64,000 nucleotides of DNA from Eubacteriales bacterium (GCA_045659405.1 JAZOWX010000015.1:9143-73142); one strand, 5' to 3'. Positions 32,767 through 32,813 are shown, counted from the first letter of the stretch. The notes: generated by a model not told the origin, from the letters alone. Numbers and translations are program-made.

Positions 32767-32813
32767 ACTCCTTCAGTCTCGCCTTGCTCGACAGCTCCCT
32801 CAAAGAGGGAGCC
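32767..32813 (+). repeat. Three-arm hairpin element, variant (copy E)
   Basis: actccttcagtctcgccttgctcgacaGCTCCCTCaaaGAGGGAGCc. It has the same 5' ACTCC start and a terminal 8-bp hairpin. Confidence 0.6.

Follow-up and report, generated by a model that had tools for sequence, protein, structure and literature searches.

Folded repeats in the window

The window analyzed here, a stretch of DNA of 64 kb, contains five copies of a short folded repeat, with starts at 20894, 21035, 22506, 22617 and 32767. Three are near-identical A-type copies, one is B-type and one is F-type. Each copy presents its parts in the same order: a pyrimidine arm (arm 1), a first hairpin (hairpin 1), a 3-nt linker and an 8-bp second hairpin (hairpin 2) whose 5' arm (arm 2) is pyrimidine and whose 3' arm (arm 3) is purine. 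Arm 1 reads CTCCCTCC, CCTCATCC or CTCCTTCA across the window copies, and hairpin 1 takes the form CATTTC-TGC/TAC-GAAATG or ACCGC-TTT-GCGGT. The copies and their parts are as follows.

20894-20942, + strand: A-type copy 1; arm 1 20895-20902 (CTCCCTCC), hairpin 1 20905-20919, arm 2 20923-20930, loop 20931-20933, arm 3 20934-20941 (GATGGAGG), with a C x T mismatch
21035-21080, + strand: B-type copy 2; arm 1 21036-21043 (CCTCATCC), hairpin 1 21044-21056 (ACCGC-TTT-GCGGT), arm 2 21060-21067 (CCTTCCCC), loop CACT, arm 3 21072-21079 (GGGGAAGG)
22506-22554, + strand: A-type copy 3; hairpin 1 22517-22531 (loop TAC), arm 2 22535-22542, arm 3 22546-22553 (GATGGAGG)
22617-22665, + strand: A-type copy 4; arm 1 22618-22625, hairpin 1 22628-22642 (loop TGC), arm 2 22646-22653, loop GGG, arm 3 22657-22664 (GAGGGAGG); both hairpins perfect
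32767-32813, + strand: F-type copy 5; arm 1 32768-32775 (CTCCTTCA), weak middle segment 32776-32792, arm 2 32794-32801 (GCTCCCTC), loop AAA, arm 3 32805-32812 (GAGGGAGC)

All five copies had been recognized in the initial annotation, although two of them were placed 10 nt too high (at 20904 and 21045). The conserved 5' arm described there is borne out across the copies, and the internal hairpin is present as a layout, being weak in the copy at 32767. An 8-bp stem closed by a 3-nt loop had been ascribed to every copy, but it is perfect only at 22617 and 32767; a C x T mismatch (arm GATGGAGG) interrupts the stem at 20894 and 22506, and the loop at 21035 has 4 nt (CACT). The A-rich sequence said to follow the hairpins is found after four of the five copies and is absent after one, the bases in question being CAAAAA, CTAAAA or CTCGTA. 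The pseudo-peptide GRWHFAEMTEGV can indeed be read straight off the minus strand, and spurious ORFs overlap the copies.

In four of the five copies the orientation is sense and a stop codon lies 4-165 nt upstream. The copy at 20894 begins 22 nt past the stop of an AraC-like ORF (19999-20871) and that at 22506 begins 4 nt past the mgtE stop (22499-22501), while the copy at 32767 is antisense to both flanking genes. With a covariance model the A-type copies score 55.9 bits (20894), 56.4 bits (22506) and 64.1 bits (22617), and the F-type copy scores 29.8 bits. In DNA folding, the perfect copies are predicted to form hairpin 1 plus hairpin 2 with z-scores of -2.6 to -3.3 on both strands (-2.8 on the + strand and -3.3 on the - strand for the copy at 22617). 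A fold joining arm 1 to arm 3 is predicted only for the two copies with a mismatched hairpin 2, and it is the minimum-energy form of the copy at 20894.

Distribution and orientation of the repeats

The genome from which the window derives is a 1.81-Mb assembly in 74 contigs, with 45% G+C and 97% completeness. Iterated nhmmer searches recovered approximately 28 copies in it, belonging to at least six subtypes. All of these copies are intergenic, and the ORFs that contain them are spurious ones seeded by the repeats themselves. A hairpin grammar (pyrimidine arm, hairpin, pyrimidine/purine hairpin) matched this genome 17 times, versus once in the reversed genome. The search was then widened to 151 genomes of the order, the pattern specifying nothing but the three arms and allowing any 12-26 nt in the interior; it gave 82 matches in 23 of these genomes, versus 0 for the reversed pattern. 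Such numbers lie far above those due to chance. The free interior of the 82 matches is always a hairpin, of unrelated sequence.

Intergenic loci with an element comprise 11 convergent, 7 tandem and 1 divergent arrangement (p = 2e-4 for convergent), measured against own-genome intergenic DNA that is, by length, 19% convergent, 54% tandem and 26% divergent. The initial annotation raised a strand bias relative to upstream genes, which our counts do not reveal: orientation relative to the gene on the 5' side is 15 sense versus 14 in other genomes, and the 14:6 ratio by locus in the own genome is not significant.

Structural selection and the register of the arms

A covariance model built from a few A-type copies retrieved 150 matches from the window together with 68 loci, 114 of the matches being distinct. 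In the seed of model R1 the terminal loop of four sequences was padded by one base, so as to even out their lengths, for search use only, and all counts were made on natural sequences. On the model-fitted alignment of the 114 distinct sequences, 97% of the hairpin cells pair, compared to 80% in shuffles and 50-66% with slid partners, and compensatory changes on both sides occur in 13 of 14 pairs; double-changed cells number 202 versus 40 in shuffles (0/500), figures that are generous since the alignment follows the model and the copies share ancestry, subfamily descent inflating the counts. All four Watson-Crick pair types are seen at every position of hairpin 1. Strong structural selection acts on both hairpins, which bears out the earlier observation of a conserved architecture with varying sequence.

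The relationship of arm 1 to arm 3 proved to be of another kind than had been proposed. The initial annotation held that arms 1 and 2 compete for arm 3 in two mutually exclusive Watson-Crick states. Antiparallel pairing of arm 1 with arm 3 is possible in 88% of cells, versus 87.6% in shuffles, with 7 co-changes where 3.4-3.6 are expected. We rejected this helix, for its covariation is no better than that of shuffles. When the two arms are instead compared in parallel register (C with G, T with A), 87.8% of cells match versus 77.7% in shuffles, and there are 26 co-changes versus 4 expected (0/500); a shift of the register by one or two positions lowers the match to approximately 40-44%. By inspection, all 8 positions of the A-type arm 1 (CTCCCTCC) match arm 3 (GAGGGAGG) in parallel. 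Parallel covariation of arm 1 with arm 3 means that arm 1 is a mirror repeat of arm 2. Judged from the arm sequences, this mirror geometry is what a third strand lying on the arm2:arm3 duplex would require, i.e., a predicted intrastrand triplex motif, which would be of the pyrimidine type on the element strand and of the purine type on its complement.

The loops of hairpin 1 carry a strand preference of their own. In 22 of 34 triloop stem classes the loop is T-N-C closed by C-G, and the top strand has 0 GNA loops. A T-N-C triloop closed by C-G reads C-GNA-G on the complementary strand. Mini-hairpins of the d(C-GNA-G) kind are exceptionally stable in DNA.

Modules at the ends of DUF559 cassettes

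The only DUF559 gene of the own genome (C14:14174-14578; Pfam PF04480, 1e-27) has a reverse B-type module 5 nt upstream, and arm 1 and hairpin 1 of another module downstream. Similar arrangements recur through the order, where DUF559 is present in 39 of 151 genomes. Among the 31-32 DUF559 genes examined, a reverse-oriented module sits just upstream of 17-18 and a forward module overlaps or follows the stop of 12-19, and at least 9 strict-pattern matches lie within 100 nt of a DUF559 gene; approximately 0.04 modules beside DUF559 genes are expected from background density. At the level of whole genomes, DUF559 occurs in 18 of the 23 genomes with the element and in 21 of the 128 without it (odds ratio 18, p = 1e-8 over 151 genomes, a figure that ignores kinship). 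Elsewhere in the phylum DUF559 is rarer (16/251), and phylum-wide recognizable modules are found only at the closer DUF559 homologues, with similar pyrimidine/purine hairpins flanking some of the distant ones.

A complete cassette of approximately 470 nt consists of two inverted modules around one DUF559 (Vsr-like PD-(D/E)XK) nuclease gene, and its ends are imperfect inverted repeats of approximately 50 nt. In the typical unit (L051, L049, L064, L070) the left side reads (GCCTCCCTT-GTGTAA-AGGGAGG-TGGC-hairpin-GAC-GGAGGGATTG)-TAAA-ATG, after which DUF559 follows, and the right side reads CAATCCCTCA-GTCAGC-TTC-GCTGAC-A-GCTCCCTT-TACAC-AAGGGAGC-C. Arm 1 of the left module supplies GGAGGGA 6-9 nt ahead of the nuclease start codon, and the right module encodes the last residues of the nuclease (KQSLSQLR), with the stop codon inside hairpin 1. 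The 'ACTCC' end that the initial annotation singled out is conserved because it is the inner, gene-proximal edge of the cassette module.

The window copies can be assigned to these ends. A-type corresponds to the left cassette end and F-type to the right, and in bit score the window copies agree with the ranges of the respective ends. The copy at 32767 is shaped like the right-hand end of a DUF559 cassette (..CAGTC..GACAGCTCCCT..AGGGAGCC), and its score lies inside the 26-31 bits of cassette right ends. The copy at 21035 is of the subtype that ends the sole DUF559 gene of the genome, and it is 84% identical to C14:14121-14178. The own genome has approximately 8 A-type copies and no A-type cassette.

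Residues D50, E61, D63 and H67 are invariant in 31 DUF559 proteins; as residues of catalytic type, they would imply a selected activity. To our knowledge, no biochemical activity, cut site or binding has been reported for any DUF559 protein. The only PDB entry for DUF559, 3HRL, is a structural-genomics entry with no function assigned. A search of the whole cassette against a plasmid collection gave no match. In the library searched for DUF559 with repeats or mobility we found only a table row that lists the family as 'enriched among predicted inversion targets' (PMC9881135) and its placement in fold classifications (PMC3424549).

Insertion judged against empty sites, and target duplication

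Comparison of related genomes provides a view of the cassette as a unit. G077 and G021, with flanks 98% identical, both contain a 471-nt cassette that is missing from G099 (89-91% flank identity) and G051 (83-84%), where the two flanks adjoin directly. The 40-nt target CTCGGCGCGAGCTTCGCGCTCACCGCGCCGAAGATAAAGA occurs once in the empty G099 and G051 and on both sides of the cassette in G077 and G021. Through its left copy the upstream gene stays open as far as a stop within the module, and its right copy preserves the region in which the downstream gene starts. This route of insertion would be gentle on the host, because the duplicated target preserves both the end of the upstream gene and the start region of the downstream one. 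A gene-less doublet of approximately 330 nt is likewise present in G021 and absent from G099 and G051, and in G077 a doublet occupies the same stop-codon/ribosome-site junction in the opposite orientation. Judged against the empty sites, the cassette and the gene-less doublet read as discrete insertions.

Other cassettes are flanked by direct repeats of 27-57 nt, and target duplications range in length from a few nt (at the L028 site) to 111 nt. A search for hairpins within these duplicated stretches was suggestive in 3 of 7 cases and not significant overall. Gene-less doublets of approximately 150 nt, arranged as reverse F-type, 33 nt and A-type, are 83-87% identical in three families. The elements are 83-89% identical across families, versus only approximately 65% for mgtE within the genus, and this greater likeness of elements than of host genes suggests horizontal spread. 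In genomes of the cassette's genus, the query cassette has 28-68 matches per genome, almost all of them to its two modules, and the same genomes have one or two nuclease genes each.

Duplicated sequence also accompanies the window copies.

20793-20878, + strand: X1, the translated last 86 nt of the AraC-like gene, in direct repeat with 20946-21031 at 91% identity (D7)
20946-21031, + strand: X2, an untranslated ghost copy of the AraC-like gene end, between elements 1 and 2 (D7)
22449-22670, + strand: tandem pair of 111-nt units at 97% identity (D3), each with the final 57 nt of mgtE followed by an A-type element
32723-32832, + strand: 15-nt direct repeat, ATAATCAAGTATTTT at 32723-32737 and ATAACCAAGTATTTT at 32818-32832, at 93% identity (D2)

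All three differences between the 111-nt mgtE units fall inside the elements. The 15-nt repeat brackets copy 5 together with 29 nt on its 5' side; by our own estimate chance alone would give approximately 0.03 pairs of this kind in the 371 nt, and the repeat looks like a target duplication. Arrangements of gene end and element like those of the window occur on C28, C59 and C14. For the duplicated gene ends, a DGR-like template/variable repeat was rejected, the eight X1-X2 differences being, by eye, not adenine-specific. Among congeners we found no empty allele of the window loci: 11 mgtE loci (L002-L012) gave no element match; mgtE is only approximately 65% identical there, and the loci cannot be aligned base by base. 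An exact-protein look-up of MgtE and a 26-nt exact scan of metagenome contigs for the window loci found nothing.

Interpretation

We consider it likely that the elements are solo 'end modules' of small mobile DUF559 cassettes that are spread across this order of gut Clostridia. Each of the five copies in the window is best explained as a solo module, with gene-less doublets and solos outnumbering full cassettes. The module has the layout of the BoxC/PIT/TM intrastrand-triplex repeats with a freely varying hairpin in place of the short first loop, and the DUF559 nuclease may recognize the folded ends (as hairpin, cruciform or triplex) and cut to move or copy them. The gene ends found in duplicate next to the window copies may be footprints of the same insertion route, which would leave the host gene intact, and tandem units of gene end plus element could then arise via unequal exchange between duplicated gene ends. 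Several observations count against a nuclease-driven origin: the own genome has approximately 8 A-type copies and a sole DUF559 gene that is B-type ended, the window copies are one-ended, and duplications from a few nt to 111 nt fit no single known chemistry. Alternatively, the nuclease could simply be carried along as a passenger, or could be a homing gene for which the repeats are just a target.

The five elements are best explained as DNA-level repeats and not as RNA genes. As an RNA, the element would sit in the 3'-UTR and switch between arm1:arm3 and arm2:arm3 Watson-Crick folds, and this switch would terminate transcription, make the upstream mRNA more stable or serve as a small RNA with a C-rich anti-Shine-Dalgarno sequence. 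We regard such a role as very unlikely, even though the sense placement of four of the five window copies 4-165 nt past a stop codon, the 88% of cells in which arm 1 can pair with arm 3, the arm1:arm3 fold of the two mismatched copies and the resemblance of the arms to Shine-Dalgarno or anti-Shine-Dalgarno sequences are all in keeping with it. Orientation in the wider sample shows no preference (15:14), copy 5 is antisense to both its neighbors, and covariation of the antiparallel arm1:arm3 pairing stays at shuffle level while the parallel register rises above it. The triloop bias favors the complementary DNA strand, and the same modules serve as the inverted ends of an insertion. Rfam returned 0 matches over the whole window at the gathering threshold and chance-level matches only for 20700-22800 at E up to 10, and a terminator scan called no element, there being no T-run (U-tract) after the hairpins; a reading as intrinsic (Rho-independent) terminators, which have a T-run directly after a G+C-rich hairpin, was rejected on the same ground, as no element qualifies. 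PIT elements are reported to lack promoter and terminator activity in E. coli (PMC4666352). At the DNA level, it is extremely improbable that these are ordinary REP/REPIN sequences mobilized by a RAYT (IS200/IS605-type Y1 transposase). REP sequences share with them a multi-copy, intergenic occurrence at gene 3' ends, a hairpin structure and a scarcity of enzyme genes relative to repeats, and the inverted doublets of approximately 150 nt resemble REPINs. However, the 97%-complete genome has no Y1_Tnp match, by a search that made detections in 6 of 14 control genomes, so that the RAYT which the initial annotation had thought worth seeking was not detected. The repeats lack a GTAG-type 5' tetranucleotide, the bracketed gene is DUF559, of a different fold, and the units are flanked by long target duplications. 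Single-strand Y1 transposition leaves no target duplication. A known REP or MITE family with ordinary short target duplications, which had been allowed for at the outset, is not what we find, given the lack of a RAYT and the unusual length of the flanking duplications.

The main rival to a nuclease-driven mechanism is that the repeats propagate by errors of replication or recombination with the nuclease as a passenger. In its wider form, this explanation treats the elements as host-maintained or self-propagating non-B-DNA motifs that spread by slippage or recombination at the fold, DUF559 being a passenger or a site-preferring homing gene. It accounts for solo modules that greatly outnumber nuclease genes, for own-genome A-type copies without a cognate cassette, for the 5 of 23 element-bearing genomes that have no DUF559 gene, and for tandem units of gene end plus element, which fit slippage or unequal exchange; triplex motifs have also been tied to genomic instability in E. 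coli without a known enzyme (PMC4666352). We nonetheless hold it to be unlikely. Modules and gene move as one discrete unit with target duplication, the modules contain both the start signal of the nuclease and its stop codon, co-occurrence with DUF559 is strong at the genome level, and the residues of catalytic type are invariant; moreover, the identity of elements across families (83-89%) is far above that of housekeeping DNA. We retain the DUF559 cassette ends as the preferred reading of the repeats.

A broader proposal can be entertained, though we hold it only tentatively and would not yet call it probable: that three-block triplex-motif repeats, including the E. coli BoxC/PIT/TM repeats and those described here, are the ends of transposase-free mobile DNA whose sole enzyme is DUF559. 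On this proposal DUF559 would recognize the folded ends and insert the units while duplicating tens of target bases. If true, one mechanism would cover the approximately 30-year-old BoxC puzzle, the function of DUF559 and 'insertion with long target duplication'. The BoxC/PIT/TM repeats, known since the 1990s without a mechanism, would gain a candidate protein partner and a mobile form, and DUF559, a very widespread family of unknown function, would gain a testable role. The 40-nt target duplication, seen by comparison with empty sites, is what ties the system to 'insertion with long target duplication'. There is a practical side as well, since the repeats seed many spurious 'hypothetical proteins' in gut Clostridia and recognizing them improves annotation.

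Comparison with known systems

The cassettes resemble the Vsr-like (EDxHD) homing endonucleases, such as I-Bth0305I, in that a small gene, free-standing or inserted, for a nuclease of the Vsr fold behaves as selfish DNA (PMC2677866, PMC3384342). They differ in that the window elements lie outside introns and inteins, and in having folded inverted ends of their own, target duplications and many gene-less copies. With the REP/REPIN-RAYT systems they share short, folded, extragenic repeats at gene 3' ends (PMC3116915, PMC3337134), an inverted doublet as the likely unit, and bracketed enzyme genes that are few beside gene-less copies that are many. Here, however, the enzyme is a Vsr-like PD-(D/E)XK nuclease and not an HUH Y1 transposase, with no RAYT (PF01797); the module has two hairpins and a pyrimidine arm, whereas a REP is one imperfect palindrome with GTAG; and the insertions carry long target duplications.

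MITEs and insertion sequences invite comparison through the inverted ends of approximately 50 nt and the target duplications, but the sole protein here is DUF559 and not a recognized transposase. Insertion sequences typically leave fixed duplications of 2-14 bp, whereas those observed here are long and variable. The long duplications match 'insertion with long target duplication', described for restriction-modification units by Furuta et al. in 2010 (PMC2853133), citing an earlier H. pylori study of the same group. In both cases a compact unit of restriction-endonuclease fold, without transposase or integrase, is set against an empty site and flanked by direct copies of a unique target longer than 30 bp, often over a gene 3' end; in our data such a comparison with an empty site comes from the 471-nt cassette of a relative (40 nt) and not from the window copies. 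The units of that study are kb-sized restriction-modification systems without structured inverted ends or gene-less derivatives, in contrast to the unit of approximately 470 nt described here, with its folded inverted ends of approximately 50 nt and its abundant doublets and solos.

The BoxC/PIT/TM repeats offer the nearest likeness of the module itself, and they are reportedly treated as intrastrand-triplex repeats by Hoyne et al. (2000). The initial annotation could name no described family for the elements, yet their three-block layout fits this one (PMC4666352). Both comprise three homopyrimidine/homopurine blocks, in the order Y-Y-R on one strand and Y-R-R on the other, and in both the outer like-block mirrors the inner one (here in parallel register, 87.8% versus 77.7%). 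Both are G/C-rich, occur in tens of copies per genome, are always intergenic and show no strand bias, with loops more variable than stems and local rearrangement nearby. The TMECO consensus is CCCTCNCCC-N3-6-GGGNGAGGG-N3-GGGNGAGGG (PMC4666352). Our elements have a covarying hairpin of 13-25 nt in place of the 3-nt loop between the like blocks; by the short-loop criterion of that family the segment between arm 1 and arm 2 (12-26 nt) fails and the second loop (3-6 nt) fits. Because this hairpin replaces the short loop, published triplex-motif searches, which allow loops of up to 6-10 nt, would miss these elements. The arm also differs, being of the CTCCCTC type and not CCCTCNCCC. For TMECO, Holder et al. 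(2015) found no stable triplex in vivo, and the BoxC/PIT/TM study reported no association with mobile elements (PMC4666352), while the modules described here are the ends of a nuclease cassette whose insertion is evidenced by comparison with empty sites. In E. coli K-12, the last codons of ycjD (DUF559) recur as a ghost copy after the gene, and a TMECO/BoxC copy lies approximately 170 nt downstream of ycjD. By their sequence layout, the elements are a hairpin-bearing variant of the unexplained BoxC/'triplex-motif' repeats.

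Results

Among the duplicated target segments, the direct repeats lying beside or around an element (window 20793-20878 and 22449-22505; L051 and L053, loci from other genomes; C14:6750-7000 in the window's own genome, G000), most contain a hairpin of their own, and in a shuffle test of these hairpins significance was reached in L053 and C14 only.

A terminator-like hairpin (CTACTGTTCGCTGGCAGTAG then CGATTTTGTC) is present in the final codons of mgtE and again in the duplicated copy of these codons, and it ends just 5' of the stop codon.

Window 22468-22490: terminator-like hairpin, mgtE last codons
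Window 22579-22601: terminator-like hairpin, duplicate of these codons

A third, decayed copy of the gene end (CTGCTCACTTACAGTTGAAATTTTGTAGTAAATAA, window 22672-22705) lies downstream of the second mgtE unit, and 3' of it, at ~22705-22770, is the real bidirectional terminator. The most downstream copy therefore seems to be the oldest.

Elsewhere in G000 a longer form of the module, the D-type, is found in which hairpin 1 and hairpin 2 are separated by additional stem-loops of ~70 nt (CAGAACGG..GGCAT-TATCA-ATGCC..CCGTTCTG).

C14:14640-14750: D-type module
C65:100495-100546: D-type module
C1:13752-13803: D-type module
C56:164-214: D-type module

The D-type copies have a common 3' flank, CTGAACGGCGATAGAA, and a similar sequence, ACGATAGAGGTAAGG, is found 5' of the A-type copy 1 of the window. 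Modules of this genome also occur in groups, as an array of four, separated by spacers of ~100 nt in which a motif from the flank recurs (C59:19742-20047), and as a cluster of at least three in mixed orientations (C65:77160-77554).

Around some genes for the Vsr-like nuclease DUF559 the modules are arranged the opposite way round, such that hairpin 2 adjoins the gene, and the arm sequence differs too (ACCCTCTTT / AAAGAGGG).

L059 and L065: reversed modules, family f6
L084: reversed modules, another family in the phylum

In E. coli K-12 the DUF559 gene ycjD has an 18-bp hairpin just 5' of its start codon and, downstream, a ghost duplicate of the gene's 3' end, with GGAGACGGTGCTGGAGAATATTC..CTGAACCG present twice.

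L113 (NC_000913.3) 5480-5300, minus strand: ycjD and its ghost 3' end

Discussion

Gene-less doublets of genomes G077 (L108/L111, C69) and G021 (L028, C17) occupy the same stop-codon/ribosome-site junction, within flanks that are 99% identical between both genomes, in opposite orientations and with different internal sequence. This means either that one site was used repeatedly or that an inversion took place. The pair may be related to a published result (PMC9881135) in which predicted inversion targets are enriched in DUF559.
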